Translations under genes and position numbers: made by a program | Assembly: GCA_963737965.1 (NCBI GenBank) | Contig: CAVTUS010000008.1 | Coordinates: forward strand, 420,208-484,207 | From: an uncultured Chloroflexia bacterium | Lineage (GTDB): Bacteria > Chloroflexota > Dehalococcoidia > Tepidiformales > Tepidiformaceae | Length of the DNA: 64,000 bases | Reading direction: 5' to 3' | In this document: piece by piece, positions 1,045-56,694 of the stretch | Layout: the number at the start of each line of letters is the position of its first letter | Position numbering within the stretch: the stretch's first letter is position 1 | Notes under the pieces: model-generated | Told to the model about the DNA's origin: nothing | The model's input: only the letters and a program-made list of their open reading frames with translations | Databases searched by the model: none

Positions 1045-2360
1045 ATGGACGCCAGCATCGACCTTTCCCGGTACCCCCTCGAGGCCATCGCGACGAAGGT
1101 TGGCACGCCCTTCTACCTCTACGACGGCGCAGATCCTTCGCGAGCGGATGGCGGAAGTGGCGCGAACAGCAGGGCCGGATGGTGGCCGCGAACGGCTGCA
1201 TGCCCGCTATGCGATGAAGGCGAACTCGCTCCGCTACGTCCTCGACATCGCCCGCGAGGCCGGGCTCTGGATCGATGCCGTAAGCGGGAACGAGGTGCAG
1301 CGTGCCAGCCGCGCGGGCTTTGCCGGGGGCCACGAGCCGCCGGTGATCATGTACACCGCCGACGTCTTCCGTGACGACGCCCTGCAGACGGCGGTGGCCG
1401 AAGGAGTGCTGCCCAACGTCGGCTCGCCGGGGATGATCCGGGATCTGCACGAGGCGGGGTACGCCGGGCCGATCGCCCTCCGCGTGAACCCGGGCTTCGG
1501 GCATGGGCATGTGCAGGCCTGCGACACCGGTGGCCCTTCCAGCAAGCATGGCATCTGGCACGAACAGATGGCCGATGCACGCGCCACCGCGAAGAAGGCC
1601 GGCTACCCGGTGGTGGCGCTCCACGCGCATGTCGGCACCGGTCCGCAGATCAGCGAGTTCGACACGAATATGCGGCGGCTCGTCGATGTCTTCGACGCGC
1701 TGCTTGCAAGAATTCCCCGATGCCCGATCGGTGAACCTCGGCGGGGGCATCCCCCACGCCTACAGGCTCGACGCCAGGCACTACAACATGGGCGGCTTCC
1801 GGACCCTGATGCTCGAGGCGGCGACGACCCTCAGCGAGTCGGTAGGGCGCCAGGTCTCCCTCGAAATCGAGCCGGGACGATACCCGGTTGCGGGCTCCTG
1901 CATCCTCGTCGCGCGGGTCACCGACGTGAAGGACACCGGGACGAACGACAAGGGCCCGGGCCAGCGTTTCGTCATGGTTGATGCCGGGTTCAACGACCTC
2001 ATCCGGCCGGCGATGTACGGCTCCTACCACCACATCTCGGTGGTGGCGCCGGGTGGCCGCGTGGACGGGCGGGCCACGGAAGAGGTGGTCGTGGCCGGCC
2101 CCCTTTGCGAGAGTGGCGATGTCTTCACCCGCGACGACCAGGAGTTCCTCGAGCCACGGGCACTGCCATCGCCCCGGCCAGGCGACCTGCTCGTGCTCCA
2201 CGATGCCGGCGCCTATGGCTATGCGATGGCAAGCAACTACGTGAGCATGGGCCGCGCCCCCCAGGTCGCCTTCGACGACGGCAAGGTCACCCTCGTCTCC
2301 CGCCGCGAAACGCTGGACGACATCCTCAAGCTGGAGACGGCAGAGGCGCTGGCGCTCTAG
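1045..2360 (+). pseudogene. lysA: diaminopimelate decarboxylase, interrupted by two frameshifts
   Basis: ATG at 1045 after GAGGAG. Homology runs through three frames: MDASIDLSRYPLEAIATKVGTPFYLYDGA | ILRERMAEV...YAMKANS...HAHVGTG | EFPDARSVNLGGGIPHAY...EPGRY...CESGD. Frame changes lie near 1130 and 1712. Confidence 0.85.
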
Positions 2361-3142: not shown

Positions 3143-3336
3143 GCGATGCCTCCTCGCCGGGATTCGCTATCAGTGTTAGCAACGCACATTTCAGGAGTGT
3201 GAAGCAGGCCGAATGACTGGCGAGGATATCCGCGCGTCATAGATTCGCCATATGGCTCAGCGCCCTACGCTGATGCGCGGCCGGCCCACGTCCGCCCTCT
3301 CGACCCGGAGCGGTCCTGCCGAATGGGGCCGCCTTG

Positions 3337-4212
3337 CTACGTCGTCGCCAGCAAGGCCGCCATCTCCCGTGGCGTGTTTGTCGTGAACAGGTCAACGCCT
3401 GACGCCGCCAACCTCCTCACGTTCGCCTCCATGCCTGTGCGGCTGAGGTCCATCGTCCAGGCGTCCAGCTCGATCCCACGATCGTGACAAGCCTCGGCCC
3501 AGTTCAAGCCGTCCGCGAGGGAGTGCGTTAGCAACCGATGGTGGACGTAGAGAACCTCGATGCCGGGCACGAGGTCGAGGAGCATCTCGCAGCGGAGGCG
3601 GAGGTACTCAGCCACGGGGAGGTCGCGCTCGAAGGCGAGTGGATGGTCGTCGCGGTAGCCGTGGACGCCGGTGTGATAGGGAGGTGGGTCCGTGCCCGGC
3701 GCATCGGGTGGCCACCAGGCCAGGTAGAGGAGTGGGTCGAACCCGAGCGGGAAATCCGGGTCCAGCGCCCGGAACCGGCGCAGCTGCCAGTCGGCCGGCG
3801 AACTCAGGAGGACCCGGTCGCGCAGCGGCTCAACGATGCGCAGCAAGCGCTCGATCGGCTCGTCGTTGCCGTAGGGGAGCTCGTCTTTCAGGTCGAGCTG
3901 GAGCCGGCAGTCTCCCCCGGCGCGCACAAAGGCATCCACGACGTCGGAGAGCAAGGCAATCGGCAGCTCCGTTTCCTGGAACCGAAGCGCTCTCGCGCCC
4001 TTTGCGGCACAGTCGCGCGCCAACCCCACCCCCGTCGTCTGAGAGGCGAGGTCGATGTCGTGGAGCACGATGAAGTCACCGTCGGCCAGGGCAGCGACAT
4101 CGATCTCGATCCACGCGGCGCCGTAGGCAAGGCTCGCCTGCACAGCAGCCAGCGAGTTCTGCGGATGCGCCCCATCGAGGGCGGCGGAGTGATGGACGAT
4201 GGCCGGGCCGTG
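3337..4212 (-). CDS. glycerophosphodiester phosphodiesterase-family protein, 5' end unresolved
   Basis: GDPD-like AIVHHSAALDGAHPQNSLAAVQASLAYGAAWIEIDV...VLHD. The open frame reaches 4212, just below a TGA. The only in-frame start is the GTG at 4143, which lies inside the conserved N-terminal motif, so the true start appears lost or frameshifted. Confidence 0.6.
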   Translation of the reverse strand, partial: HGPAIVHHSAALDGAHPQNSLAAVQASLAYGAAWIEIDVAALADGDFIVLHDIDLASQTTGVGLARDCAAKGARALRFQETELPIALLSDVVDAFVRAGGDCRLQLDLKDELPYGNDEPIERLLRIVEPLRDRVLLSSPADWQLRRFRALDPDFPLGFDPLLYLAWWPPDAPGTDPPPYHTGVHGYRDDHPLAFERDLPVAEYLRLRCEMLLDLVPGIEVLYVHHRLLTHSLADGLNWAEACHDRGIELDAWTMDLSRTGMEANVRRLAASGVDLFTTNTPREMAALLATT

Positions 4213-4215
4213 TCA

Positions 4216-5287
4216 CAGGGGAAACAGTACCAAGCCACGGTGAATGGTCAGCCAGCTTGTGTTGTCGCGGTCGATGAAGAGGTATGGTAAGCAAGCTGTC
4301 TTGTTGTCGAAGAGTGAGGGGTGGATAGAGAAATTCATTGAAGGTGAAGGGGTGAAGGCATCAACGTCGCGGGGGAATTTCATCGGTAAGCGAAGAGCAG
4401 AGGACGGCGCACAGGGAAGCGCGAGCTACGTTGGGCGGGTGCGCTATTTGGGTAGAGCCGGTGCACGTAAAAGCTGACGACGCTAGAGGATGAACTCAGG
4501 CAGGGCGGCGAGGAAGGTCTGGCGGCTGCGAAGCAGAAACCAACGACGTACAGCATGTGAGCAAGGCCTCTCGCAGATATGCCATGGCTGCCTGGAGGTC
4601 TGCATAGAGCCCTCACGGATCACAGCAAGATGTGCTCCATGCAAGGAAAGTGCTCAACAGGGCCGCTGTGAGTGGCGGTTAGTGCAAAGTAGTGAATAGC
4701 GATTGCAGGGTGGCTTGTAGGCGAAGGCGACGGCGAGCGCTTAGTAGAACGGGTGGAGCGAGAGAAAGTAGGGCAACAAGACCAAGGCAGCACTCATGAA
4801 CTAGTTGGGAAGGGAGGAGAAGGAGGGGATGGTTGCTTGATCAAAGAGGTCAGTGAGAAGGCAGAAGCCTACACCTCAGTTCAAGCAGTCAGAAAACAGA
4901 AGGCAGGGAGAAGGGTTTGTGGCACATGATAAGTACTATAGGCATAAGTAGAAGAGAATAGTTGAGGATGAGTGAAGCAGGGGAGGGGAGAGGCAAGGGA
5001 AGTGGAAGGTGGATGGAGAAAGAGGCGGAAGCTACACTAGAATCATATAGGCCGCAGGTGCGCTCCTGCTATGGCTTTCGCCGATGGGGTCAGGCTGTGT
5101 CGCCCGTTGCTAGTACCCGTATGGCTATAATAAGGAAGGCTGGCTCTCAGATGATTAGAGAAGGGCAAAGGATGAAATACAGAAAGAAGTGGGGAAGTGC
5201 AAGAACAAGTAGGCAGATACTTGACAACGTGTGTTACTCTGCACACGAGCGAGCAACAGAGTCAGGAGGTGCCGTGACTGCAAGTGA
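4216..5287. other. purine-skewed, lower-GC, ORF-poor block of unknown nature (candidate long ncRNA or foreign insert)
   Basis: Hand counts of 60-nt lines: 4801-4860 A18 G27 C4 T11; 4981-5040 A20 G30 C5 T5; 4381-4440 A15 G26 C13 T6. The longest ORF is 111 aa. Both neighbouring genes lack starts at its borders. Confidence 0.5.
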
Positions 5288-6650
5288 GCTCTTTTAGAGC
5301 TAGACGCTCTGCGGAGCAGCCTTTAAGGCGTGCTTATTGAACGATCGCACCGAGACTTCGACCAGGTGCGCCAGGTTCTACAACGGCTATATCGACCGAC
5401 CGCGCAGGCACTTATCGCGAGGTGCTTCAACGTCGCCGATGTCGTGGACGCGCTGCGCTATGGTCGGGAGGGCAGGGCTGGAGATCGCAGTCCGCGGCGG
5501 CGGCCACAACGTCGCCGGGCGTGCGGTCGTCGATGCGGGTCTGGTCATCGACTTGAGCCCCATGAAGGGCATTTTCGTCGACGTTGCGAAGCGGACGGCA
5601 CGCGTGCAGGGCGGCGTGACCTGGGGTGAGTTCAACAGGGCCGCACAGCTACACGGCCTCGCGACCACCGGGGGAGTGATCTCAACCACCGGCGTGGCGG
5701 GCCTCACGCTTGGCGGGGGCCTCGGCTACCTGATGAACGTCGAACGGGCTCTCTGTCGACAACCTGTTGTCAGTCGAGCTCGTTACCGCTAACGCCGACG
5801 TGATTTCGGCCAGTGACGATGCAGCACCGGGATCTGTTTTGGGCGCTGCGCGGTGGCGGCGGCAACTTCGGGGTGGCGACTTCCTTCGAGTTTGCGCTGC
5901 ACCCGGTCGGACCCTTGGTGTCGGGCGGCGTTATAGCCTACGCGGTCGAGGCAGCCGGCGAGATGCTCCGGTTTTTCCGCTCATTCACCGGCACCCTTCC
6001 GGACGAGATGGTGATGTTCGCGTCGCTGCTGCATGCTCCGGATGGGTCCGGAGCGAAAATCGCCGCGATGGTCTGCGGGCATTGCGGCACGCCGGAGCAA
6101 GCGGAAGCGGATCTTCGGAGGCTCCGCGAGTTCGGAACGCCGGCCATGGATATGCTGGGGCCGATACCGTATACGGCCCTGAACGAGATGCTCGATGCCG
6201 GCTTCCCGAGGGGTGCGCGTAACTACTGGAAGTCGAGTTTCCTCGCAGGCCTGGGCGACGAGGCCATCGATACGATGGTGAGCCGGTTCGAGAGCTGCTC
6301 CTTCACCGATGACCGGCCTGCTGCTGGAGCACTTCCACGGCGCCGCATCGCGCGTGGCGCCAGACGCGACCGCCTTCCCCCACCGAAGTGACGGATACAA
6401 CTTCCTGGCTGCGTCCGAATGGCTCGAACCCGGCGAGGACGACGCGAATATCGCCTGGGCCCGCGAGACATACGAGGCGATGACGCCGTTCTTCAGTTCA
6501 GGGGGCTACATCAATTACCTGGACGACGATGAATCTGCAGACCGCGTTGCGAGATCGTATGGGCCGAACTACGCTCGCCTGCAACAGGTAAAAGCCGAGT
6601 ACGACCCGGACAATGTCTTCCACCTGAACCAGAACATCCGGCCAGCGTAG
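5288..6650 (+). pseudogene. FAD-linked oxidase (BBE/PCMH-type), heavily degraded
   Basis: Homology can be followed as LDALRSSL*GVLIERSHRDFDQVRQV | YNGYIDR | PTAQALIARCFNVADVVDALRYGREG | GLEIAVRGGGHNVAG...GGLGYLM | LSVDNLLSVELVTANADVISAS | HRDLFWALRGGGGNFGV... | MTGLLLEHFHGAASRV...YINY...NVFHLNQNI. There is no start codon, an in-frame TAA at 5324-5326, and at least six frame changes. Confidence 0.85.
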
Positions 6651-6660
6651 CCCAGCGTCG

Positions 6661-7465
6661 CTACCCGTAGCTCACCGCAAGGCCCGCCCGCGCGTCTGAC
6701 TGGATGCCGTACTGGGGGATCGGGTAGCGGAGGCCGTTGGCCGCTGAGCCGCTTCATCCCGGCGATGGCTTGCGGCAGGTACTTCGGTGGCATGGCCATG
6801 AGCAGTTCGTCGTCGAGCACGCCGCCGTAGCGTCGTTCGGCGAAGCAGGGGATAGCGAGGCTGGGTTCGCTCTTCAGCAGCGCCCGCCCCCACGAGTCGG
6901 CGCAGGCCGATTCGCCGACGACGCTCCACTCGAACTTGCGGTAGCCCGACCACTGGAGGCCGTTGATGAGGATCATCATCTGCCCCGGCGTGGCGTAGAT
7001 CAGGCAGATGTCGGGCGGGTCGAGGCGGCCGCTGGCGAGCGGCGAAACCGCCATCGCCGTGTAGTTGCCGAAAGGCACGACGTCCATCGCCGCCTGGTGT
7101 GCGGCGCGAGTCCTCGGGCGTCTCATACCAGACACCGGCCATGTTCTTGCCGCACAGCCACTGCTCGTCGCGCGGGTGAAGGCCGATGACCGCGCCACAC
7201 TGCGCGCCCGACGAGGTCGTCGTTGGTGATGCCGACGGTCCAGCCGAGCCGGCAGGCCTGGGCGACGATCTGGTCGGTGGTGTGGATGGCCTGTCGGGCG
7301 GCGAATCTTCGGGATCGCCTCCATCTCCGCCACCGTCGCGAACATCTTCATGCCGATCGGGTGTCGTCTTCAGGCGAAGGAGCGTGTTGAGGTCGTCGAC
7401 GAGCTTCGGCCAGTCGAAGGACTCCGGGTCCTCCACTTCAATCTCGGCGGGTTCGATGAGGGACA
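6661..7465 (-). pseudogene. DUF169-family protein, about five frameshifts
   Basis: MSLIEPAEIEVEDPESFDWPKLVDDLNTLLRLKTTP | IGMKMFATVAEMEAIPKIRRP | AIHTTDQIVAQACRLGWTVGITNDDLV | GAQCGAVIGLHPRDEQWLCGKNMAGVWYETPEDS | AAHQAAMDVVPFGNY...MMILINGLQWSGY...CFAERRYGG... | NGLRYPIPQYGIQSDARAGLAVSYG*. Confidence 0.75.
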
Positions 7466-7495
7466 TACTGCGCCTCCAGGCAAGGTGCAGCCAAG

Positions 7496-8172
7496 CTACG
7501 CGGCGGCTGGCAGCCCCACAAGCGGCTCCGGCCGGTCGCCCGCCATCAGGTAGCCACCAAACAGCACCAGCCAGAGGATCACCGGGTAGGCGACCCAGCG
7601 CTCGACGCCACCGTCGCCAAACCTGTCGAAGAGCGCCGTCCCGGATCCGACGACGGCAAAGACGAGCACACCCAGCGTCGTCGCGCCAAGCACCATCGAG
7701 GCCCAACCTGAGATGCGCGCCTGCACCTTCGCTGAGAGGATCGCGCCGACACCCCCGAGGTGAAGGCGAGGAGGGCGAAGATGCCATGCATCGGTGCCCG
7801 GTTACCTGGGAAAATCCCGACACCGAACACCGCGATGCCAATCACGAGGACTGAGATCCAGGTCCGCTTTCCGAACCTGGCTCGCCGGAGACCAACGGCA
7901 GCGGCGATGATCAGGGCGCCGCTGAGGATCATGGTTGCATTGAAGATGCGGGCCGACGGCTGCCGAATGATGCTGTTGGGCGGCGTGGTGGCGCCGAGGT
8001 CGCTGATCTCGTTGTCGTGGGTCGTGTAGGTGGCAGGGTAGAGAGCTTCGGCGGTGATGATCCCCATGAGAATCACCACGCCGGCAGTCGCAAGAGCGAG
8101 GCCGGAAAGCACCGGGGCGCGCATGTTCGCGACGCGTGAGCCGGTGTTGGGCGCGGGTTTCGTGGTTTCCAT
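7496..8172 (-). pseudogene. DUF998-like integral membrane protein, one frameshift near 7740
   Basis: METTKPAPNTGS... is followed by multiple hydrophobic helices. The reading continues in ORF 7496-7726 (ISGWASMVLGATTLGVLVFAVV...). Confidence 0.6.
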
Positions 8173-8321
8173 CGCTGCATGGTCGATCACGCGGCCCTGG
8201 CTGCCCGCGGCCGGTTGGGTACCGGGGTATGTGCCCCCACGGCCGTATTTGCGCCGCCCGCTGACCGATCGCTGACGCCAGGAGAGCCAGGCAGGCATCG
8301 ATAGCCGCGAACCATGGCTGC

Positions 8322-9611
8322 ATGAGCCTCCGCTCGTACCAGCGTCCCGTGCTGGTAGATATCCACCGCGGCATGGTCCGCGACCTCGGCGGAACCTACA
8401 CCGTCATGTTTCCGCGCCAGGCGGGGAAGAACGAGATCGCGGGCTTGCTCGTCGCCGGACTGCTCGTGGCCCATTCCCGTGCCGGCGGGACAATCGTCGT
8501 GTCGGCGCCGACGTTTGCGCCGCAGGCGCTCATCTCCCTTCAGCGGGCCATGGACATCTTTGGCCGCATGGCGAACGTCGCCGGGCAGTTCCGGACGGAA
8601 CGAAACAGCATCAGGTACGGGCGGGCGCGGGCCACCTATCTCGGGGCGAACCCGGAGGCGAACGTGGCCGGTCACACGGCCTCCATCGCCATCATCGCGG
8701 ACGAGGCCCAGGACATCGAGGCGGACTGGTTCGACCGCCAGTTCCGGCCGATGGCAGCCTCGACCGGCGCCCCAACGGTGATGTTTGGGACGGCGTGGAA
8801 CGGCCAGACGATGATCGAGAGGGCGGTGGCGGCGAACAAGCACACGGCGCCGTGGCGCAACTACCGCGTGACATGGCGAGAGGTCGCGGGAGAACTCCAA
8901 GCGTACAGCAAGTACGTCCTCGCTGAGCGCGAACGTCTCGGGGCGAGCCACCATCTCTTTCGCACCCAGTACGAGCTGCTTCCCGGGCAGCCGAGGGGCT
9001 CGCTGTTCACGGCCCACCAGCTCGCCCGGCTCCCGGGCGAGCATCCACGGCTCTTCGGCCCTCTGCCGGGCGAACGGTATGTCGGCGGGCTCGATGTCGG
9101 TGGGTCAGGCCAGCAGGCCGACGCGACCGTGCTGACGATCGGGCGGGTCATGGGCCGCCGGCTGGAGGTGGTCGAGCACGTGGCCTGGCAGGGCGCCCCA
9201 TTCGGCCTGCTCGAGGTGGACCTTCGCGATCTCCAGTCGCGCTGGCGGTTGCAACGCATTGCCGTCGATGCGACCGGCCTCGGAAGTGGGCTCTTCGACC
9301 AGCTCAAGGAGGCCGGGCTCCCGGTACACGACTTCAAGTTTTCGCGGGGGAGCAAGTCCGAGCTGGGAAGTGCGCTCATCGCCGCCGTGGAGACGGGGAG
9401 GCTTGCCCTCTACGCCGATGACAGCTCGGTCGAGTACGGCGCCTGCCTGCAGGAACTGCGCGAGTGCGGTCTCGAAATGGTCGCCGGCGGCTGGCTTTCG
9501 TGGGGCAACAGCAGCGGCCACGACGACTACGTGGCGAGTCTGGCGCTCTGCCTGCATGCCGCACGGACTCTGCCGGCGTCGCGCGTGGCGGTGGGCCGTC
9601 GCCGTACGTAG
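8322..9611 (+). CDS. phage terminase large subunit-like protein (orphan, intact)
   Basis: 429 aa. Walker A-like FPRQAGKNE, Walker B-like IAIIADEAQD, and C-terminal RNaseH-like nuclease motifs GLDVGG...DATVLTI, AVDATGLG and GHDDYVASLAL. No other phage genes lie nearby. Confidence 0.75.
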   Translation: MSLRSYQRPVLVDIHRGMVRDLGGTYTVMFPRQAGKNEIAGLLVAGLLVAHSRAGGTIVVSAPTFAPQALISLQRAMDIFGRMANVAGQFRTERNSIRYGRARATYLGANPEANVAGHTASIAIIADEAQDIEADWFDRQFRPMAASTGAPTVMFGTAWNGQTMIERAVAANKHTAPWRNYRVTWREVAGELQAYSKYVLAERERLGASHHLFRTQYELLPGQPRGSLFTAHQLARLPGEHPRLFGPLPGERYVGGLDVGGSGQQADATVLTIGRVMGRRLEVVEHVAWQGAPFGLLEVDLRDLQSRWRLQRIAVDATGLGSGLFDQLKEAGLPVHDFKFSRGSKSELGSALIAAVETGRLALYADDSSVEYGACLQELRECGLEMVAGGWLSWGNSSGHDDYVASLALCLHAARTLPASRVAVGRRRT

Positions 9612-9619
9612 GGCCGACC

Positions 9620-10057
9620 TCAGGCGACGACTTCGAGCGAGTCGTGGATCTCGGGTACGGCCATCAGGGTCTTGTGGACGGGGCACTTGCTGGCGACGCG
9701 GAGGAGGTCCTGCTGCTGTTCCTCGTCGAGGTCGCCGCGGAGGACGATGCGGCGATGGAAGTGCTGGACGTAGCCTTCGTGCTCATTTTCGCAGTCCGTG
9801 CAGTCCTCGGCGTGAATACGCTCGTGCTCGACCTGCACCGCCACCTCCTCGAGCGGGTATCCCTTCTTGCGCGCGTACAGCTGGATCGTCATGGCCGTGC
9901 AGGCGCCCAGCGCCCAGGTGAGGAGGACGTAGGGCGTGGGCCCGAGGTCATCGCCACCTTCGTCTTCCGGTTCGTCCGCAACGAGGGAGACGCCGGGCGC
10001 CGTCAGGAGCTGGGCGAAGTCGTAGTCGGCGAGCGACTGGGCGATAACGGTGATCAT
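9620..10057 (-). CDS. OsmC/Ohr-family protein
   Basis: GPTPYVLLTWALGACTAMT...ASKCPVHKTL pattern. ATG at 10057 is preceded by GGAGG. Confidence 0.75.
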   Translation of the reverse strand: MITVIAQSLADYDFAQLLTAPGVSLVADEPEDEGGDDLGPTPYVLLTWALGACTAMTIQLYARKKGYPLEEVAVQVEHERIHAEDCTDCENEHEGYVQHFHRRIVLRGDLDEEQQQDLLRVASKCPVHKTLMAVPEIHDSLEVVA

Positions 10058-10159
10058 GGCGCCTCCGGCGAGGGAAACTAGGTGCACCCCCAGCCAACGG
10101 TAGCCGGTTGGGGAGAAGCGTGGGAAGGGCGCCGGCGCTCCACCAACCGCCGAAATGGG

Positions 10160-10165
10160 TAGAAT
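10160..10165 (+). promoter_or_regulatory. -10-like TAGAAT, 8 nt before the nudC ATG (leaderless-type)
   Basis: ggTAGAATcggacgccATG. The same gTAGAATc string recurs at 21419-21424 (reverse), 29480-29485 and 53752-53757. Confidence 0.4.
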
Positions 10166-10173
10166 CGGACGCC

Positions 10174-11011
10174 ATGGCGTTTCTCATTCACAACGAAGAC
10201 TCCCGGGACCCCTACCCGGAGGCGCACTGGTTCATCGTCCGTCGCAGCGAGATCCTCATCTACGACTCGCCGGAAGGCCCACGAATCCCCTACCAGCGGG
10301 GCGAGCCGCCAATCGAAGGTGTGTCGCGGCACGTCCTCGGTTCGATGGATGGCGTCATCAGCTACGCCATCGACGCCGGCGAGGACCCATCGATCGCGGA
10401 GCCGCCGGACCACCGCTGGGTGAACCTGCGGGCCGCGTTCGCTGAGCTGAACGAAGAGGCCTGGACGGTCGCCGGGCGGGCAGAGCAGCTCGTGGCCTGG
10501 GGCCGGACGCACCGCTATTGCGGCCGCTGCGGCAACGAGAATGAGCTCCACCCGGTGGAGCGGGCGATGGTCTGCTCGCGCTGCGGGCTGATGCAGTTCC
10601 CGCGACTTTCGCCGGCGACCATCACCCTGGTAACCCGCGGCGAGCAACGACGAGGAAGTGCTCCTCGCCCACGGCCGCCAGTTCGGGCGGACCTTCTACA
10701 GCTGCCTTGCGGGGTTCGTGGAGCCGGGCGAGAGCCTCGAAGGCTGCGTCGCCCGCGAAGTGCAGGAAGAGGTCGGCCTTGAAATCAAGGACATCACCTA
10801 CTTCAACAGCCAGCCGTGGCCGTTTCCCAACTCGCTCATGATCGGCTTCCGGGCGCGGTATGCCTCGGGCGAGCTGAATCTCCAGGAATCCGAGATCGTC
10901 GACGCCCGGTGGTGGCGTGTCGGCGATATGCCTGACAGCTACCCCCGCGGGGGTATGTCGATTGCCGGTTGGCTGGTCGAGGGCTGGCTGGCGGAGCAGG
11001 GCGCGCTGTAA
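10174..11011 (+). pseudogene. nudC: NAD+ diphosphatase (NUDIX, NudC-type), one frameshift near 10640
   Basis: Zinc ribbon YCGRCGNENELHPVERAMVCSRCG...FPRLSPA, then in another frame the NUDIX box GFVEPGESLEGCVAREVQEEVG and SQPWPFPNSLM. Confidence 0.8.
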
Positions 11012-11113
11012 AGCACCGGCGCGATCGGCCGTCCCGCTGAACCGCGGACTGTCGGCGCGTGTGTCCCCCGGCGGATACGATCCTCCCACACTCCTGCTAC
11101 AAGAAGGAACGAC

Positions 11114-11618
11114 ATGGATCTGCTTCTCAACGACCTCACGCCCTGGCCGTGGGCGGTCGGTGGCGCCGGCATCGCCGCCATCACGCTGGTCTTGCTCTAT
11201 GTGGGCAATCACCGCCTGGGCGTCTCCACCGGCTTCGAAAACGTCTGCTCGCTCGTCGTCGACGACGCCGTACTTTCGCCGCGATGCCGTCAGCGGCTCG
11301 AATTCCTGGCGGCTGCCGCTCCTCGGCGGCCTCGTTATCGGCGGGTTTCTCTCGGCGATCCTCGGCGGTGGCTGGTCGCCGTTCTGGGACATGGGCATCT
11401 TCGATACCGACATCGGCTGGGGACCTGCCGGCAAGGTCGTCTGGATGTTTGCCGGCGGCGTCCTCATCGGCTTCGGCACGCGCCTTGGCGGCGGCTGCAC
11501 CAGCGGCCACGGCATCTTCGGCATGTCGAACCTGGAAGTGCCAAGCATCGTCAGCACCGTCAGCTTCATGGTCGGCGGCATCATCACCACCAACCTCATC
11601 TACCGGGTGATCGTCTGA
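11114..11618 (+). pseudogene. YeeE/YedE-family sulfur-compound transporter half, one frameshift near 11270
   Basis: MDLLLNDLTPWPWAVGGAGIAAITLVLLYVGNHRLGVSTGFENV | ...GGLVIGGFLSAILGG...GFGTRLGGGCTSGHG. Confidence 0.7.
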
Positions 11619-12072
11619 TGCGCTGGACCGCCTTCTACCTCGCCCTCGGCACCGTCTTCGGCCTCACCCTCAGCCGCTCCGGAGCCGCCGACTACAACTA
11701 CATCCAGGGCATGTTCCTCTTCGAGAAGTTCCAGCTCTACGGCATCATCGGCACGGCCGTGGTCCATCCTCGACGCCGAGCCTCTTCCTCCTCAAGCGCT
11801 ACGGCCGCACCGCCGATGGCTCGCCACTGGTCATCGAACGAAAGCCCGGCCACCGCGGTAACGTCGCCGGCGGACTCCTCTTCGGCGTCGGCTGGTCGAT
11901 CACGGGCATGTGCCCGGGCCCGGTGCTGGTCAATGTGGGCGAAGGAAAGTGGTACGCCCTGGCGGCCCTCGCCGGTGTCCTTGTTGGCGCCAGCAGCTTC
12001 GGCGTGGCCTACCCGCGCCTCACCGGCATCTTTCGGCTCCCACCACTCGAGGTCGGCACCGGCGAGGGATAG
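11618..12072 (+). pseudogene. YeeE/YedE-family transporter second half, one frameshift near 11770
   Basis: TGATG stop/start overlap with the previous gene. MRWTAFYLALGTVFGLTLSRSGAADYNYIQGMF... | ...[21 protein letters not shown]. Confidence 0.65.
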
Positions 12073-12122
12073 CGAGCGTTCAGCGCGCCGCGGAGAGCGT
12101 AGAGTCCTCCCGGAGGCAAGGC

Positions 12123-12869
12123 ATGTCGAACAAGATCGCCCTCATTACCGGCGCCGGCAGCGGCATCGGCCAGGCATCCGCCATCGCCCTCGCGGAGCAC
12201 GGCTGGTCTGTCGTCCTCGCCGGCCGCCGCCGGGAAGCCCTCGACGAGACGGCAGCCCTGTTGCCCGCGGGCGCCGGATCTCTCACCGTCCCCACGGACG
12301 TCCAGGAGATTGAGCAAATCCGGGCCCTCTTCGCCGCCACGAAGGAGCGCTTTGGCCGCCTCGACCTGCTCTTCAACAACGCCGGCCTGGGCGCGGGCGG
12401 CCCCATTGAGAGCCTCGCCATCGAGCGCTGGCGCCAGGTCGTCGATACGAACCTGACCGGCGCCTTCGTTTGCACCCAGGAAGCCTTCAAGATCATGAAG
12501 GACCAGGACCCTCGCGGCGGCCGCATCATCAACAACGGATCCATCTCCGCCCACGCGCCGCGGCCGAACTCCGTTGCCTATACCGCCACCAAGCACGCGA
12601 TGACCGGGCTTACAAAGTCAACCTCGCTCGACGGGCGGAAGTACGACATTGCCTGCGGCCAGATCGATATCGGCAACGCCGCCACGCCGTTGACCTCACG
12701 GATGTCCGGCGGCGTACCCCAGCCGAACGGCGAGGTGATGCCCGAGCCGGTGATGGACGTGCGGCACGTCGCCGATGCCATCGTCTACATGGCCGAACTG
12801 CCGCTCGACGCCAACGTCGAGTTCCTCACCGTCATGGCCACGAAAATGCCGTGGCTCGGCCGAGGCTAA
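12123..12869 (+). CDS. SDR-family oxidoreductase
   Basis: [17 protein letters not shown] and YTATKHA motifs. TAGAGT at 12100-12105 and GGAGG upstream. Confidence 0.85.
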
Positions 12870-12878: not shown

Positions 12879-13499
12879 TCACGCCGCGGCCAGTGCCAGC
12901 ACCACCTTCACCGCCTCATCGGCCGTAACCCGGTCGGTGTTGATGACGAGGTCGTAGGCCTCCGCCGTCTCGGCATCGACACCGTAGAAGCGCTTGAGGA
13001 AGTCGAGGCGCGCCTTATCCGACTCCGTGATCTCCTGGCGGGCGCGTTTGGGGCCATGGGCGTCCTTCTTGAGCCGGATTGCCCTGGCATCCACGGAGCC
13101 GGTGACGAGCACCCGCACGACGCCATCGGCCGGGCCGAGGGCGTGACCGGCGCCGTGTGCAACAAGAACGCACTTTCCCGCCGCGGCCACCTCGCCAATG
13201 ACGCCGACGATGACCTCCGGATAATCAGGCCCCAGCATCTGGACGTAGTCGCTGGCGGCCCCGGGAATCTCGGGAGTCGAGAGGCTGGCGCGGGCGAGGT
13301 TGTCCATCATGCGGGCGAGCAGACCCTGCCGCCGTTCGGCGCTGGCGACTTCGGCAGCCGTCGCGCCAACCCGTTCGGCCGCCATATCGATGATCTCGGT
13401 GTCGACGTAGCGAAAGCCCAGCTCCGAGGCCAGCGTCCGCCCGATCGCTTCGCCGCCGGCGCCCAGCGCCCGCGAAATGGTGATCACATTTGTCTGCAT
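12879..13499 (-). CDS. cytidylate kinase-like (AAA) family protein
   Basis: 206 aa with ITISRALGAGGEAIGRTLASELGFRYVD P-loop-like N-terminus. Confidence 0.65.
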   Translation of the reverse strand: MQTNVITISRALGAGGEAIGRTLASELGFRYVDTEIIDMAAERVGATAAEVASAERRQGLLARMMDNLARASLSTPEIPGAASDYVQMLGPDYPEVIVGVIGEVAAAGKCVLVAHGAGHALGPADGVVRVLVTGSVDARAIRLKKDAHGPKRARQEITESDKARLDFLKRFYGVDAETAEAYDLVINTDRVTADEAVKVVLALAAA

Positions 13500-13597
13500 C
13501 CCGGGTCACTCCCCTCGTGGTGGGACGTTTGTACATCATCAGGCGGCACCACTGTGTGCGACGGATCGCATTCGCCGGTGGCATACTCCCGTGACGA

Positions 13598-14906
13598 CAT
13601 GGCCACTCCCAAGATTCGCTATGCAACGACAGGTGACGGCGTCCGCATCGCCTGGGGCGAACTTGGAACCGGGCGCACCGTCTTTCGTGTTTCCAACGGC
13701 CCCTTTCTAGAATTCCTCCCCATCTATCTCCCGGACTATGCCGAAGCAATGTCGACCGCCTTCCGGTGGGCGTCCTATGACCTCCGCGGAACTGGTCTTT
13801 CACAACGCCCAGTCGCAGAGGTGAGTGCCGAAACGATGCTTCGCGACGCGGAGGCTGCGCTTGGCGCCCTTGGCAACGAGCCACTCGTCATGAACGCGCC
13901 AGCCGAAATGCTGGCTACCCGAACTGCACTTGAACTCCTGGAGCGACACCAGGGTCGTTTCACTCATCTCTGGCTCGATGCTCCGTATGCATCCGACGCT
14001 GGGTTTCGGGAGGTCTCCCGCATAGGCCGAGCGCGCGGTGCCCTCCGTCAGATGGACTGGGAAGCGCAGACCGACGTGGTGGAGCAGGTGTTCCGCGAGA
14101 TTGACACACCCGCTGTCCGACAACGCGGCGGCGAGATGATGAGACAGAGCATCGATGCGGACACCTATCATGCCTACTCCCGGCTCCTCCATACTGAGCT
14201 GGCTGCAGAGTTCTCTCGGGTCAGCATTCCGACTATTGTGGTCGGGAACGAACGTTCAGCTGTCCCCGTAGAACTTTCGCAGGCAGTTGGCTGCCCTCAT
14301 CCCCGGCGCCGATTACGTCCAAATATCGGACCCCACCTGGATAGCCTCGTTGCAGGCGGCGAGAGAGTTCGTCAACGGGTCGCGAAGCCCCACTGCGGTC
14401 GGTCTCCCTTCCCCCTTCCGCACGATCCTCTTCACCGACATCGAAGGCCACACAGCCATCATGTCCCGGCTTGGCGACGACAAAGGGCGGGATGCTGCTG
14501 CGTGAACATGAGCGGCGCACCCGGGAAGCGCTTCGAGCCCACAGCGGGAGTGAGGTAAAGAGCATGGGCGACGGCTTCATGGCGAGCTTCAGTAGCTGCT
14601 CAGCGGGCCCTCGACTGTGCCCGGGCCATCCAGAAGGCTTTCGCCGAGCCCATTGCCGGGGAGTCAATCCGGGTGCGCATCGGCCTCAATGCCGGTGAGC
14701 CTGTAGAAGAGGACGACGACTTCTTCGGCGCCAGCGTTATCGCCGCCGCCCGCATCGCCGCAAAGGCCGAAGGTGGCCAGGTGCTCGTCGCCAACGTTGT
14801 CCGCGAGCTGGTCGCGGGCAAGGGCTTCCTCTTCCACGACACCGGCCAGCACGACCTCAAGGGACTGGAAGAGCCGGTCAGGCTGTGGGAACTGCGGCTG
14901 GAGTAG
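13598..14906 (+). pseudogene. alpha/beta-hydrolase-like domain fused to a class III adenylate/guanylate cyclase domain, three frameshifts
   Basis: N-terminal MATPKIRYATTGDGVRIAWGELG.... The cyclase part is ILFTDIEGHTAIMSRLGDDKG | LLREHERRTREALRAHSGSEVKSMGDGFMASF | AAQRALDCARAIQKAF...RIGLNAGEPVEEDDDFFGASVIAAARI. Shifts lie near 14285, 14500 and 14592. Confidence 0.7.
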
Positions 14907-24649: not shown

Positions 24650-24865
24650 ATGCCTGCGAAGCGTGGTGACGCGGACGCTTGGGGCCTGAGCCCGGCCGAG
24701 GACGATATCCTCGATCTTATCGCGCAGGACTACACGGACCCTGAGATCGCGGAGATGCGCACCCTCTCCATCCACACCGTGAAGACCCACGTCCGCCACA
24801 TCCTCCAGAAGCTGGGGGTGGCGAACCGCCGCGAAGCCGCCCGTCTTTACCGAAAATCACTCTAA
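24650..24865 (+). CDS. stand-alone LuxR-type HTH protein (71 aa, no receiver or ligand domain)
   Basis: LSPAEDDILDLIAQDYTDPEIAEMRTLSIHTVKTHVRHILQKLGVANRREAA is a GerE/LuxR C-terminal domain. Confidence 0.8.
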   Translation: MPAKRGDADAWGLSPAEDDILDLIAQDYTDPEIAEMRTLSIHTVKTHVRHILQKLGVANRREAARLYRKSL

Positions 24866-25008
24866 ACGAGGGACGCGGGGCACTGACTACACCGGCTAGG
24901 CTCCGATAGATTTAGCCATGCGCGATTGAATATCGCACGGTACGCGAACAAACATCTGGCGAGGGCACGCCAGCAACAAGACAGAGGACGTGTGTCAATG
25001 ATGTCGAA

Positions 25009-26163
25009 ATGGCCCGAGTGCCGTCCCGTCAGGCGCCGGGGGATTCTACTAGACATTCGCCCGGTGCTGCATACGAGTTGGCGAGGCGACGGTTTGCGGT
25101 CTTGAATGACCGAAGCGCCTTGAATGTGGTAGTGGGCATCGCCGTGGTCGTCCTGGGCATTGCGATTCTTGGTTGGGGGGCGTGCGCTTCGGCTTATGCC
25201 CTCCCGCAGCCTTCTCCCATTTACAACGGGGATTTGGTCCTGCGCACGACAGTTTTGATGTGGTCGGATTCACGAGACCATTACGTGCAGCTGCGCGAGG
25301 ACACGGCCGGGGTGGTGCGCGTGCTCATCGACCTCGAAGATGCGCCGATCGGCACATATGCGGTCGCGACGTACGGAGCGGGCGCCTGCCCTGTGGCGGC
25401 TGACGCGGCGCCATTTGAGGACAGAACCCTCAGGTGGACTGGAGAGGCGAGCGCTGGAGGGCCCTTTGTTGCCTTCGATACGGACAAGTTGGCCCTTTCA
25501 CGGAATGCAGCGGATACGATATATGACGCGGATGGAACGACGATGACAGTGAAACTTCCATCCGGCGAGCTCCTCGGATGCGCGGTCATCTCGTCGGTGG
25601 ACGCAGAACTCTATTTTGATAATCGGGTCGCTCTAGAATTTGCGGTTGCCTTCGAAGGTGCGGATGGCCACGAACACTACGTGACACTCCGACAAGATGA
25701 CCATGGGGTTGTACAGATTCAGCTTCAGCTCACCGACGTGCTTGCCGGAACCTATACTGTAGCGACTTATAGCGACGGGGGTTGCTCGAACGTCACTCAA
25801 CTGGATATCTCTCGTGCAATCGAGAAACGTCAGATAATCCGGCCGTCACCGGAAAGCGGAGACGTTGTGAAGAGCTTCTACACAACAAACGCGATCTCTC
25901 TTGCGCGGAACGTCCCGAAGTCAGTGTATGACGCGGACGGCACGTCGCTCGCCGTGTACAACAATGATGGGTCACTGCTTGGTTGCGCGGACATCTCGGC
26001 GGTAGACGCGCAGCCGCTGCCTACTGTAACGCCGGAACCGCCAGGTGCAGGAACTGGCATCGTAGGCGCTCAGCCGAATAAGGGCGGCGAGATGTGGTTG
26101 CCCGTCGCGTGGATGCTCGCGGGGCTTGGTGTACTGGCGCTGCTAATTTTGAAGCGCCGCTGA
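25009..26163 (+). CDS. membrane-anchored protein with two tandem ~125-aa domains resembling Cu/Zn-SOD but lacking His ligands
   Basis: N-terminal hydrophobic signal/anchor. Repeat 1 is ...GTYAVATYGAGAC...IYDADGTTMTVKLPSGELLGCAVIS. Repeat 2 is ...GTYTVATYSDGGC...VYDADGTSLAVYNNDGSLLGCADIS. C-terminal hydrophobic helix plus KRR. Lower GC than its surroundings. Confidence 0.6.
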   Translation: MARVPSRQAPGDSTRHSPGAAYELARRRFAVLNDRSALNVVVGIAVVVLGIAILGWGACASAYALPQPSPIYNGDLVLRTTVLMWSDSRDHYVQLREDTAGVVRVLIDLEDAPIGTYAVATYGAGACPVAADAAPFEDRTLRWTGEASAGGPFVAFDTDKLALSRNAADTIYDADGTTMTVKLPSGELLGCAVISSVDAELYFDNRVALEFAVAFEGADGHEHYVTLRQDDHGVVQIQLQLTDVLAGTYTVATYSDGGCSNVTQLDISRAIEKRQIIRPSPESGDVVKSFYTTNAISLARNVPKSVYDADGTSLAVYNNDGSLLGCADISAVDAQPLPTVTPEPPGAGTGIVGAQPNKGGEMWLPVAWMLAGLGVLALLILKRR

Positions 26164-26722
26164 GTCCGCCGGCTGGGCCGTGGTCGACCTCGAAAACGCA
26201 GGCGCGACAGGCGTCATCACTACGGCACATTGCCAAAACCTCACTACGTATTGGGAAAACGGGAGCACGTCGTGGAGCGTTTAGTTTGTTGCTCGAGCAT
26301 ATGATGCGTATCGCGACGTCCAATGGCTTTCCGTCTTGGGGACCGAATATGCTCAGTTCTTTGATGGTTCGTCCTTACGCGCTGTCGACGGAACACAGCC
26401 GCGTAGCTCTCAGACGATCGGCCAACTTGTATGCCATTACGGGATTACCACGGGCTATAGTTGCGGACAGCTCACTTCAAAGACCTACAAGCCGACCTGG
26501 ACTTACCCGGACGCCTGCCCTGGTGGCCCATGCGCACAGTCATGGATGAAGGTCGATGACTGGCAATCGCAGGACGTGAGCTGCGACCATGGCGACAGCG
26601 GAGGCCCGTGGTTCCTGGCAACCACGGCGTACGGTGTGCACAAAGGTAGCCCGGGCAGCTCCTGCGTCTACATGGCCATCGATTTCATTTCGCCGATGGG
26701 AGTGTACGTCCTGACCCAATGA
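26153..26722 (+). pseudogene. alpha-lytic-type S1 serine protease remnant (N-terminally truncated, in-frame TAG)
   Basis: GWAVVDLENAGATGVITTAHCQN (His), in-frame TAG at 26283-26285, DVQW (Asp), CHYGITTGYSCG, CDHGDSGGPWF (Ser). No signal peptide or pro-region. The frame is closed by TAA/TGA at 26144-26152. Confidence 0.7.
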
Positions 26723-27101
26723 AGATCCTGCTCTCCCTGTTCGCATTCGTTGTCGTCACCGCAGCGGCGGCGGCGGTGGGGATGACTGGCTCCCCCGCTA
26801 CAAGGGCGAGCCGAACGGGGATGATGCCGAGCTTCGCGGCTCGCTCGTCCGCGAGGGCGACTGTCTCTATGTTGAGGATGGCGGAATGCGCTGGATGCCC
26901 GTCTTTCCGACCGTTCGGACGAGCTTCGATCGGGAAACGAATGTGCTGAAAATCGACGACAATCAGTTCGCCGTTGGCAACGAGGTAGTACTAGGCGGGA
27001 GTGGTGCTCCCCTCGCCGATTTGCCCAATGTGCAGTGGGCGACCGAGCCGGACGACTCCTGCGATTCGACGTATATATGGTCCGTCGGGCTCTTCAACTG
27101 A
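26719..27101 (+). pseudogene. small secreted protein, unknown function, one frameshift near 26780
   Basis: ATGA overlap with the protease remnant. MKILLSLFAFVVVTAAAAAVG | DDWLPRYKGEPNGDDAELRGSLVREGDCLYVEDGGMRWMPVFPT...STYIWSVGLFN. Confidence 0.5.
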
Positions 27102-27121
27102 ATCTCGCCGTTCGCCCCTAT

Positions 27122-27193
27122 CGCTGCACCCCGCCCGGCTGGCACGTCCGGCAAAAGCTCGTGACCCGCTGGTTCGCCGTGATCTCGCTGATG
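27122..27193. repeat. 72-bp duplicate of the mutM 3' end (copy A, detached)
   Basis: 69 of 72 nt identical by hand alignment to 27910-27981. Reverse strand encodes ISEITANQRVTSFCRTCQPGGVQR*. Upstream of this the reading is unrelated to mutM. Confidence 0.85.
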
Positions 27194-33283: not shown

Positions 33284-34051
33284 ATGGCAAAGCTCGAGAA
33301 CAGGGTCGCATTCATCACCGGCGCCGGTAGCGGCATAGGTCGCGCCAGTGCCCTCCGCATGGCCTCCGAAGGCGCCGCCATCATGTGCGCCGACCTCGAC
33401 GAAGAAGCCGCCCAGGGCACCGCCGCGGCGATCGCCGAGCATGGCGGCAAGTCCGCGGCGATGAAGATCGATGTCTCCTCAAGTGACGAAGTGAAGGCAG
33501 CGCTCGAACAGACGGCCCGCGACCTCGGCGGCCTGCACGTCATCTACAACAACGCGGGGGTCGGCGGTGGCTTCGGCTGGGACCGCACCATCGCAATCAA
33601 CCTCAGCGGCGTCTACTACGGCCTCTTCCATGGCGCTCCCTTCCTCGCCGAGCGCGGCGGCGGCGCCATCATCAGCACGGCGTCCGTCGCCGGGCTCGTC
33701 GGCCTCGTTGGCGTCCAGCCGGCCGAACCGGGTCAGCCCCTTGCCGAAGGTGCCGGCGCTTACGTTGCCGCCAAGCATGGCGTGGCCGGGCTCACCAAGC
33801 AGTTCGCCATCACCTTCGCCCGCCAGGGCGTCCGCGTGAACGCCATCGCGCCCGGCTACATCGAGACGCCGATGATCGCGATGGCCAGCGAGGATCCCAA
33901 CGCTCGCCGCTTCCTCGAGTCACTGCACCCGATGGGCCGCCTCGGCCAGCCGGAGGAGATCGCTGCCGCCGCTGCCTTCCTCGCCAGCGACGATGCCAGC
34001 TTCATCACCGGCATCGTCCTCCCCGTGGATGGCGGTTACACCTCGCGCTAG
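33284..34051 (+). CDS. SDR-family oxidoreductase
   Basis: [24 protein letters not shown]. Confidence 0.9.
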   Translation: MAKLENRVAFITGAGSGIGRASALRMASEGAAIMCADLDEEAAQGTAAAIAEHGGKSAAMKIDVSSSDEVKAALEQTARDLGGLHVIYNNAGVGGGFGWDRTIAINLSGVYYGLFHGAPFLAERGGGAIISTASVAGLVGLVGVQPAEPGQPLAEGAGAYVAAKHGVAGLTKQFAITFARQGVRVNAIAPGYIETPMIAMASEDPNARRFLESLHPMGRLGQPEEIAAAAAFLASDDASFITGIVLPVDGGYTSR

Positions 34052-35010
34052 AGGCGGCGCTCCAACGCCGAGCTAACCGGCTGAAAGTACCGACCCCAAA
34101 AGCTGTCCGCTTCGAGGTTGGCCGACTCGTGGTCAACGGAAAGTACCGTTAGCCCGCGACGTTCGGCTTCGGAAGCCACAGCGGACAGCAGTGCCTGCGC
34201 CACGCCCGTGCCGCGATGCTCAGGTTCCACGAACATGCCGTTGATGGCGAGGACCTCATCGCCGTGAACCGCATAGGAGACATCGAACTGCGGCTCCTGG
34301 GCCTTGATGTAGCCGACCGGCTTCCCACCGTAGCTGGCGACAAAGGCAATGGACGACTCGCCGCGGAGCCAGTCGGTCCACCGCTCGACCGACCACCCGG
34401 TGGCCGCGGGGAGGAACACCGGCGACGCCTCCAGGTGCGCTTCGAGCAGGGCGTGGAGTCGCGAGAGGTCCACTGCGTGCTCTGCGGTCGCTGGTGTGAT
34501 CGTGCAGGCTGCGGGAACCACCGGGTCACCGACGGCCGAGCGCACGTGCGACACCGGTGAGGCACGGTTTGCCAGGAAGCGCCCGAAGCCGAGCTGGACG
34601 AAGGCCTCTTCGGTCTGGCTGTCAGTGGCGAATACGGACACCGTATGCAACCGGCAATCACGCTGCACCAGTTCCGCGGCAAGAGCCCGGTAGAGGTGAC
34701 CGACATCGCGGCTGCCATTGCCAGCGTTGGTGGCGGCGCAAGCCCACTCGAGGGCGAGGCCGCCAACCGTTGCCCCGCGTAAGCCAGGGATAAGCAACAT
34801 GCCAAGAAAGGTCTTGAGGCGTCCTTCATCGAATGCCCCGAATGCGACCCCTTCGTCGGCAAGCCTGGCGAGTTCTTGGCCGAGGACTGACGTGGCGCCC
34901 GCGGGCAGGAACGGCAACTCGGTTCGCAGCCTGGCGTGGCCGGATACTGCGAGGTCCAACATCGCAGGGATGTCGTCGGAGGTGAGCGCGCGTATCGCGG
35001 AGGAAGCCAC
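34048..35010 (-). CDS. GNAT-family N-acetyltransferase (two-lobed)
   Basis: 320 aa. The C-terminal lobe has MFVEPEHRGTGVAQALL (acetyl-CoA motif A). Confidence 0.7.
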   Translation of the reverse strand: MASSAIRALTSDDIPAMLDLAVSGHARLRTELPFLPAGATSVLGQELARLADEGVAFGAFDEGRLKTFLGMLLIPGLRGATVGGLALEWACAATNAGNGSRDVGHLYRALAAELVQRDCRLHTVSVFATDSQTEEAFVQLGFGRFLANRASPVSHVRSAVGDPVVPAACTITPATAEHAVDLSRLHALLEAHLEASPVFLPAATGWSVERWTDWLRGESSIAFVASYGGKPVGYIKAQEPQFDVSYAVHGDEVLAINGMFVEPEHRGTGVAQALLSAVASEAERRGLTVLSVDHESANLEADSFWGRYFQPVSSALERRL

Positions 35011-38576: not shown

Positions 38577-39142
38577 TCGTCTTTCACCATCTTCTGTAAT
38601 CGCGACACTGCCTTGTGTTGAAGCACTTTCACATTGTTCTCGGATTTACCCAGGACCGATGCCGTCTCTTTCACCGAAAGCCCGGCGCCGAAACGAAGCG
38701 CGATCACCTGGCGCTGTGCATCGGGGAGCCGTTCTGCGGCCTGGCGGACCACGATCAGCGTCGACTCCATCTCGATGCTGCCCGTGAAGTCGGGCGTCGC
38801 GTCTTCGATGGTATCGGTGAGCTGGACGTTGCCGCCGCGGTGTTTCTGCCTCCGCACGAACGAGACAAGCTCGTTGCGGGCGATGCGGAACACCCAGGCG
38901 CCGAAGGGGAGGCCTCGCCACGAGAAGCTGCCGATGTTGTCGATGATCTTGAGAAAGATCTCGTTGGTAACATCTTCGGCGTCCTCGTTGTTGCCGAGGC
39001 GGGCAACGGTGTAGCGGAACACCCTCGGGAAGTAAAACTCGTAGAGCGCTGTGAGCGCCTCACGGTCTCCCTGCTTGGCCGATTCGACGGCAACGCGCTC
39101 GTCAAAATCTGGTGCCAGCTCTTCCACAGAGAGATTTGCCAA
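38573..39142 (-). CDS. ECF-type RNA polymerase sigma-70 factor
   Basis: Region 2 FFPRVFRYTVARLGNNEDAEDVTNEIFLK. Region 4 LPDAQRQVIALRFGAGLSVKETASVLGKSENNVKVLQHKA. TTG start, so the 5' end is somewhat uncertain. Confidence 0.85.
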   Translation of the reverse strand: MANLSVEELAPDFDERVAVESAKQGDREALTALYEFYFPRVFRYTVARLGNNEDAEDVTNEIFLKIIDNIGSFSWRGLPFGAWVFRIARNELVSFVRRQKHRGGNVQLTDTIEDATPDFTGSIEMESTLIVVRQAAERLPDAQRQVIALRFGAGLSVKETASVLGKSENNVKVLQHKAVSRLQKMVKDE

Positions 39143-39655: not shown

Positions 39656-39680
39656 GCGGGCCCCGGGTGACGGGGCCCGC
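39656..39680 (-). terminator. GC-rich hairpin downstream of the cupin gene
   Basis: GCGGGCCCCG-ggtga-CGGGGCCCGC, a 10-bp perfect stem. The trailing sequence on the reverse strand (attcgttcgcttc) is only moderately T-rich. Confidence 0.4.
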
Positions 39681-39774
39681 AATGCGTCCGGTGGGATTGC
39701 AGCGGACGCCATCCGCGGCTACCTGTAGCTATCCGACGCGCGATCGTGAGTGGGAGCGGTGCCGGGTTAGGGCG

Positions 39775-56688: not shown

Positions 56689-56694
56689 TAGAGT
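56689..56694 (+). promoter_or_regulatory. extended -10-like TGTAGAGT, 8 nt before the GTG at 56703
   Basis: attGTAGAGTcgacttgcGTG. Confidence 0.35.

Follow-up and report, generated by a model that had tools for sequence, protein, structure and literature searches.

An orphan purine-rich block carried with an oxidase gene in a strain-specific insertion of an uncultured Chloroflexia bacterium

Several described systems come close to the element considered here: strain-specific islets that arise by illegitimate recombination, sponge RNAs of the CsrB/RsmZ type, large structured noncoding RNAs (ncRNAs) such as OLE, GOLLD, ROOL, HEARO, and raiA, and unpolished or low-coverage segments of long-read metagenome assemblies. 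In this study, we analyzed a 64,000-nt stretch of DNA from an uncultured Chloroflexia bacterium (assembly GCA_963737965.1, contig CAVTUS010000008.1, positions 420,208 to 484,207), which is referred to below as the window. The element in question is a purine-rich block of about 1 kb, located between a GDPD-family gene on the minus strand and a FAD-binding (PF01565)/BBE (PF08031) oxidase gene on the plus strand. Its most fitting category is the small strain-specific islet, an insertion that here includes noncoding filler.

The likeness to islets extends to several properties. A single-point insertion lies between genes that are adjacent in ten relatives, the composition of the block is unlike that of the host, and there is one cargo gene with its nearest homologues in other Chloroflexota lineages. 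As in islets, mobility genes and repeats are absent, and the junctions have only 2 nt (GC) in common. In contrast to typical islets, approximately 40% of the insert is orphan noncoding DNA that is extremely skewed toward purines and has a CpG-free core.

A single-point insertion between the DUF169 and GDPD genes

The closest relative of this locus, L002, derives from a Chloroflexia metagenome-assembled genome (MAG) of Microflora Danica. Alignment by blastn matched window positions 3348 to 4252 with L002 10861 to 9955 and window positions 6660 to 11011 with L002 9956 to 5538. Since window positions 4252 and 6660 correspond to the adjacent L002 bases 9955 and 9956, the DNA from 4253 to 6659 represents a clean insertion at a single point. 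It is located directly after the stop codon of the DUF169 gene, with a GC dinucleotide on both sides. The DUF169 gene is followed by the GDPD gene after 34 to 37 nt in 10 of 10 related Chloroflexota loci (L002 and L011 to L019). The gap is 36 nt in L011 to L019, nine relatives from independent assemblies, and the blastn alignments of L011 to L018 break at window position 6660. It had been asked whether GDPD and the oxidase sit back to back in relatives. Instead, DUF169 adjoins GDPD there, and both the block (searched by blastn) and the oxidase are missing at this locus.

No terminal inverted repeats were detected at the ends of the insertion, and the only bases repeated at both ends were the GC dinucleotide. 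A transposase-like open reading frame (ORF) was not found in the insertion using Pfam and PHROGs, and no tRNA was found near it. The lack of inverted repeats, of a target-site duplication, and of a transposase argues against a transposon or insertion sequence.

On the left side of the block, the GDPD gene had been described from the sequence alone as decapitated, with no start codon. This description does not hold. The minus strand reads GTG, ACA, CGG, and CCC, followed by an extra G and then by GCC, ATC, GTC, CAT, and CAC, which translates into MTRPAIVHH and corresponds to MMTRPAIVHH in L002. The single 1-nt insertion shifts the GDPD frame after codon 4; tblastn with the GDPD protein of L012 covered positions 4206 to 3343 in one frame. 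The spacer upstream of the gene is homologous to that of L002, with GCTGACCATTCACC identical in the two. Because this homology reaches position 4252, the anomalous DNA extends from 4253 to 5263 and not, as initially delimited, from 4216 to 5287. No clear promoter was found for the GDPD gene.

On the right side, the oxidase had been regarded as a resident gene that lost its promoter, was devoid of a start codon, and carried an in-frame TAA. It arrived inside the same insertion, and an AGGAGG motif followed by a likely GTG start at 5274 is present at its 5' end. The in-frame TAA is there, at positions 5324 to 5326; homologues have a serine at this position, and a single C-to-A change from TCA would give TAA. 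The 120 best oxidase homologues are mostly 451 to 464 amino acids (aa) long, with 454 to 456 aa for the closest ones. The best homologues share 67 to 68% identity and stem from Dehalococcoidia and Tepidiformaceae MAGs. When its frames were stitched together, the oxidase spanned the homologues fully, aligning from their residue 5 to 7 and within 3 to 9 residues of the N termini. The GC content of the oxidase part of the insertion is host-like. No purine-rich regions were found upstream of the oxidase homologues in L005 to L009, where the upstream DNA is ordinary.

The block occupies the interval from the end of the native GDPD spacer to the ribosome-binding site of the oxidase, and no recognizable coding sequence was overwritten. 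The sequence-only reading had considered that two promoters were knocked out by foreign DNA or by DNA from an illegitimate recombination. Its first half stands, as the insertion is absent in 10 of 10 relatives. Neither gene lost its start, however, and the oxidase was not a resident gene deprived of its promoter.

Taken as a whole, the block is best read as nonfunctional, orphan spacer DNA acquired together with the oxidase through illegitimate recombination, a reading to which we assign a probability of roughly 0.5. One illegitimate recombination event of the end-joining type probably brought in the foreign DNA. In this lineage, a 2.4-kb fragment with the block as its upstream part would have been inserted right after the DUF169 stop codon, splitting the DUF169-GDPD pair. 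The block would have no sequence-specific function of its own and would, at most, represent a long divergent intergenic spacer that now has to supply promoters. For the oxidase, this spacer would offer a candidate TATAAT hexamer and, at its right edge, the AGGAGG-GTG start. The coordinates of all features are summarized in Table 1.

Table 1. Features of the insertion and its surroundings, with positions in the window
Feature	Position	Strand	Remarks
GDPD-family gene, full length	3337-4216	-	GTG start at 4216-4214; one extra base near 4204
Native GDPD upstream spacer	4217-4252	.	Homologous to the DUF169-GDPD spacer of L002
Lineage-specific insertion (purine-rich block and oxidase), 2,407 bp	4253-6659	.	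Flanked by bases that are adjacent in L002
Orphan purine-rich, lower-GC, noncoding block	4253-5263	.	Composition; no codon periodicity; no family, homologue, or copy
Block segment	4253-4560		65% purine; CpG observed/expected 1.25
Stretch of 23 nt identical to the codons for INVAGEF in the L002 terminase-like gene	4359-4381	+	L002 7998-8020
Block segment (core)	4761-5030		74% purine; 50% GC; CpG observed/expected 0.08, one CpG in 270 nt
Block segment	5031-5130		47% purine; CpG observed/expected 0.89
Perfect TATAAT hexamer, candidate -10 box only	5126-5131	+	Precedes the oxidase start by about 143 nt; no good -35 partner
Block segment	5131-5263		68% purine; CpG observed/expected 0.46
Oxidase translation start: Shine-Dalgarno sequence AGGAGG (5264-5269) and likely GTG codon (5274-5276)	5264-5276	+	Four bases apart
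FAD-binding (PF01565)/BBE (PF08031) oxidase gene, full length	5274-6650	+	Homologues; frame map
DUF169 gene	6661-7466	-	Five single-base insertions, near 6742, 7100, 7209, 7294, and 7361; clean 266 aa once these are removed

Composition of the block and quality of the surrounding sequence

On its plus strand, the block has a purine content of 64.9% and a GC content of 53.5%. The remaining 1,011-nt windows showed 49.2 ± 2.6% purine and 65.8 ± 2.5% GC, which corresponds to z scores of +6.0 and -4.9 for the block. In a sliding-window scan, it was the top 1-kb extreme of the window for purine as well as for GC. The purine skew and lower GC noticed at first inspection are therefore borne out, and the three counts that had been made by hand (75, 83, and 68% purine) proved exact. 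This composition is confirmed as a real property of the sequence. Across nine related or homologous loci (approximately 127 kb), no 600-nt stretch exceeded 57% purine, and the other noncoding-like stretches of the window have balanced strands with 46 to 54% purine. The block is heterogeneous along its length in both purine and CpG content (Table 1); the CpG observed/expected ratio of the whole window is 1.16. The skew of the block toward purines, its low GC, and its scarcity of CpG in the core may simply reflect the donor DNA or a long-dead gene.

Several points weigh against spacer DNA that arrived with the oxidase. The block has no homologue in any collection searched, and its foreign origin is deduced solely from composition and absence in relatives. 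For bacterial DNA, 65 to 83% purine combined with a core free of CpG is extreme, and an insertion leaves both unexplained. The block also sits where indels are densest in the window, and the sequence there could be unfaithful, with perhaps very few reads behind it. Moreover, no independent assembly was found that covers it; exact look-ups of window ORFs, the corrected DUF169, and the corrected GDPD retrieved no independent contig reaching the block.

These points bear on the best-surviving alternative, that all or part of the block, notably the core at 4761 to 5030, is junk or unpolished sequence from a small number of long reads, perhaps just one, that entered the consensus. This explanation is possible, though we hold it to be doubtful. 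The genes around the block are broken by single-base indels. At least seven frame changes were identified in the oxidase in addition to the in-frame stop, and one single-base deletion in a membrane gene; together with those listed in Table 1, roughly 14 indels fall within 4200 to 7760. Their density is highest beside the block, with at least 7 in 1.4 kb in the oxidase and 5 in 0.8 kb in DUF169, and 0 to about 1.5 per kb in the other genes checked. A hidden Markov model (HMM) of GC phase was used instead of codon-usage segmentation, which was too noisy. It yielded ten same-strand phase switches between 4 and 8 kb, compared to 0 to 4 in each other 4-kb bin. Frame changes also occur elsewhere in the first 11 kb. 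The Orn/DAP decarboxylase homologue at 1045 to 2330 (plus strand) contains two, near 1076 to 1173 and 1701 to 1723, and the NUDIX homologue at 10174 to 11008 (plus strand) contains one near 10646; both proteins share 79 to 89% amino acid identity with relatives. Indels of the consensus type thus seem to affect the first 11 kb in general and not the neighborhood of the block alone. Long intact ORFs extend over most of the window past 17 kb.

DUF169 and the oxidase, the two affected genes compared with their families, are otherwise under clear purifying selection, keeping 96 to 99% of the family-conserved residues. After correction, DUF169 retained 148 of the 150 columns with a conservation of at least 97% across 119 homologues, and it is the best-conserved DNA segment relative to L002 (85 to 90% identity). 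The frame-corrected oxidase retained 123 of 128 family-conserved columns. Both genes look selectively maintained once their frames are corrected. Five frameshifts with almost no loss of conserved residues are impossible under neutral drift, which leaves errors or extremely recent events as the source of the indels. The "heavy decay" that had been ascribed to the oxidase thus comes down to single-base indels that point to consensus error. Very probably, this applies to the apparent gene decay in general, in place of old pseudogenes.

The source of the window is a 509,545-bp contig of a soil Chloroflexota MAG (NCBI/ENA). The catalogue from which its closest relative L002 derives consists of Nanopore-only MAGs, with Flye as the assembler and a single Medaka polishing round (PMC12313526). 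That the window stems from an assembly of similar type is inferred, and this uncertainty about its platform counts against an artifact. A contig assembled from short reads (L010, run ERR11718635) matched window positions 7993 to 9613 with 99.75% identity and no gaps; the same population is therefore present in independent short-read data.

An orphan block in a patch of dense indels, among conserved genes on a MAG contig, resembles unpolished or low-coverage segments of long-read metagenomes. If few reads aligned around the block, this would account for its indel-rich flanks. The composition of the block, unlike that of any other noncoding stretch of the window, and the absence of a match in any collection searched are in line with such an origin. 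However, the block differs from such segments in that it is neither low in complexity nor tandemly repeated, and its borders respect gene starts and the junction: it starts at the insertion junction and stops just before the intact AGGAGG-GTG, with neither gene damaged. Unlike in chimeric reads, the flanks rejoin at exactly the same genomic point. The indel-rich patch is one-sided, extending for approximately 2.5 kb to the right of the block and approximately 50 nt to the left, with no symmetric halo. It should also be noted that the purine bias fits no documentable error mode; to our knowledge, none has been described that turns C into A over 1 kb, which counts against an artifact.

Two further signs of error were looked for and rejected. 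A directional C-to-A change spilling into the flanks was not supported, as the substitution spectra relative to L002 were symmetric. Nor did errors appear to spill into the 5' end of the oxidase, whose divergence from homologues was no greater than that among the homologues themselves.

The main value of these findings is one of caution. What looked like a double-gene knock-out and a decaying oxidase turned out to be an ordinary strain-specific insertion overlaid by single-base indel errors. Annotation would flag GDPD, the oxidase, DUF169, and the membrane gene as pseudogenes, and these four apparent pseudogenes are probably indel artifacts. The remaining oddity is 1 kb of 65 to 83% purine DNA with a CpG-free core that has no relative among more than 5 billion predicted proteins and the other collections searched. 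If confirmed, the block exemplifies how much orphan noncoding DNA can ride with a transferred gene; if not, it is an unusual long-read artifact worth screening for. Read-level validation is needed before it is used as a basis for further work.

Coding potential, motifs, and RNA structure of the block

In addition to an artifact, a dead gene was considered that would have arrived with the oxidase and decayed beyond recognition. It could have been a mobile-element gene or a purine-rich plus-strand gene encoding a charged protein. We regard this as improbable. Four plus-strand ORFs (77, 69, 58, and 111 aa) nearly tile the block, and some 3-base periodicity with G-rich first codon positions is seen at 4660 to 4840, both of which would suit a former gene. 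However, periodicity of GC at third codon positions (GC3) is missing over most of the block, and the GC-phase HMM labeled 4284 to 5460 as noncoding. Stop codons occur at or below the frequency that is expected from composition (TAG, 20 versus 19.8; TGA, 20 versus 20.3; TAA, 7 versus 12.2), and a strand with 65 to 83% purine is not a product of neutral decay.

Database searches likewise argue against genic ancestry. The longest ORF (111 aa, 4962 to 5297) had been said to belong to no family, which was borne out by Pfam, PHROG, and protein database searches. None of the ten block ORFs matched Pfam or PHROGs at an E value of ≤0.001, and only two weak matches (E values of 0.14 and 0.014) appeared for the same ORFs at ≤1. 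The concatenated 18 open frames of both strands had no match among 5.8 billion proteins, nor did the plus-strand ORFs in a phmmer search of 1.84 billion cluster representatives. At the nucleotide level, a blastn comparison of the block with the remainder of the window (word size of 7) yielded chance matches only, blastn against plasmids and phages gave none, and exact 22- to 23-mers from the block were not found in IMG/VR. The literature offered nothing specific on purine-rich Chloroflexi elements or on long-read junk insertions. The block is noncoding, unstructured, and unconserved.

One isolated hint of genic ancestry was obtained. A 23-nt segment of the block is identical to part of a terminase-like gene in the closest relative (Table 1) and differs from the window's own copy of that gene. 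None of 300 simulations produced a match of at least 20 nt, and 2 of 63 GC-rich chunks did so when reversed; a chance origin is uncommon but not impossible. Diagonal k-mer counts and semiglobal alignment, compared with simulated and reversed controls, revealed no collinear terminase similarity beyond the 23-mer, and the possibility that the block is a garbled copy of the terminase-like gene was rejected.

The terminase-like gene itself encodes 429 to 430 aa with a Terminase_6C domain only. It is found at 8322 to 9611 (plus strand) in the window, where the short-read contig L010 matches it with 99.75% identity, at 6978 to 8286 in L002, and at 2690 to 3982 in L012. In most relatives it is located between OsmC and DUF169, and in a few it is shortened or at a contig end. 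No other phage genes surround it, and it is perhaps a domesticated terminase-like gene.

A functional element is a still weaker candidate, and we consider it very improbable. It could act as a GGA- or Shine-Dalgarno-like sponge for a protein or for ribosomes (plus strand), as a pyrimidine-rich GDPD leader (minus strand), or as a polypurine/polypyrimidine tract that forms a triplex or R-loop. The extreme strand asymmetry and a site between two divergent starts, which suits a regulatory region, are in its favor. The block had been described as packed with GGA, AGGA, and GGAGG motifs. This impression was not supported by 300 first-order Markov simulations that preserved the dinucleotide makeup of the block, in which these motifs were at or below expectation: GGA, 27 observed versus 31.0 ± 5.1 expected; AGGA, 9 versus 11.2; GGAG, 9 versus 14; and GGAGG, 4 versus 4.3. 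The sole motif in excess was GAAGG (13 observed versus 3.9 expected), which can be taken as a point for function. The block compressed no better than simulations of similar composition. Tandem and dispersed repeats were sought in it with nothing meaningful found; TRF reported only a two-copy 8-mer.

The RNA tests were also negative. At the gathering score, Rfam 15 gave no match in the whole window, and at an E value of ≤10 the region from 3900 to 5700 gave one row, a chance miRNA match in GDPD outside the block. Folding energies over 1,000 nt did not depart from those of shuffled sequences (z scores of +0.50 for the plus strand and -0.09 for the minus strand), and six block subsegments ranged from -1.18 to +1.34. 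A promoter scan of the block found sites no more numerous than in shuffles, and no terminators were found in excess. Since the block has no homologue in the ten syntenic relatives, plasmids, or phages, covariation is not computable; absence from these relatives and from every database searched leaves no evidence of selection.

Compared with CsrB/RsmZ-type sponges (Rfam CsrB, RsmY, and RsmZ), the block is similarly rich in purine and contains 27 GGA triplets in absolute number. In contrast to these RNAs, its GGA count is what composition predicts and is not enriched, the triplets are not presented in hairpin loops, as excess structure is absent, and neither conservation nor an Rfam match (CsrB, CsrC, and RsmX/Y/Z included) was detected. 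CsrB is approximately 0.37 kb long, and the block is about three times longer. It shares the size class of 0.3 to 1 kb and an intergenic position with OLE, GOLLD, ROOL, HEARO, and raiA but differs from them in having no covariance model match, a folding energy equal to that of shuffles, and no homologues. The hypothesis of a structured or sponge-type ncRNA, which had been put forward from the sequence, is thus disfavored by the Rfam, folding, motif, and homology results alike, and such an RNA is unlikely in the extreme. Similarly slim are the chances of a genuine strain-specific purine-rich transcript or DNA tract of approximately 1 kb, with a CpG-free core, that was gained with the oxidase and acts without stable secondary structure; it might titrate ribosomes or an RNA-binding protein as a single strand, or insulate the two divergent promoters as a polypurine/polypyrimidine tract that forms a triplex or R-loop.

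Other features of the neighborhood

The slot between the GDPD and SDR genes is variable. In L002 it contains a photolyase gene (10866 to 12176), in L011 to L019 a DUF4386 gene, and in the window just 194 nt (3143 to 3336). This slot is a second indel hotspot of the same neighborhood.

Four further stretches of 0.7 to 2.3 kb, at 24835 to 27129, 56074 to 57921, 13474 to 14600, and 39104 to 39770, are without the host GC3 signature. They contain 59 to 62% GC, are balanced in purine, and may represent foreign genes or noncoding DNA. ARAGORN reported a 96-nt "tRNA-???" with a four-base anticodon (agcg) at 33987 to 34082 (minus strand), located at a gene boundary, which is probably a false positive.

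A JGI contig of 1,245 nt encodes a 328-aa DUF169 protein (P0121) in which the C-terminal segment is repeated at the N terminus (VVGETACADSWGRAL... twice). This repeat looks like a wrap-around or tandem assembly artifact on a short contig.

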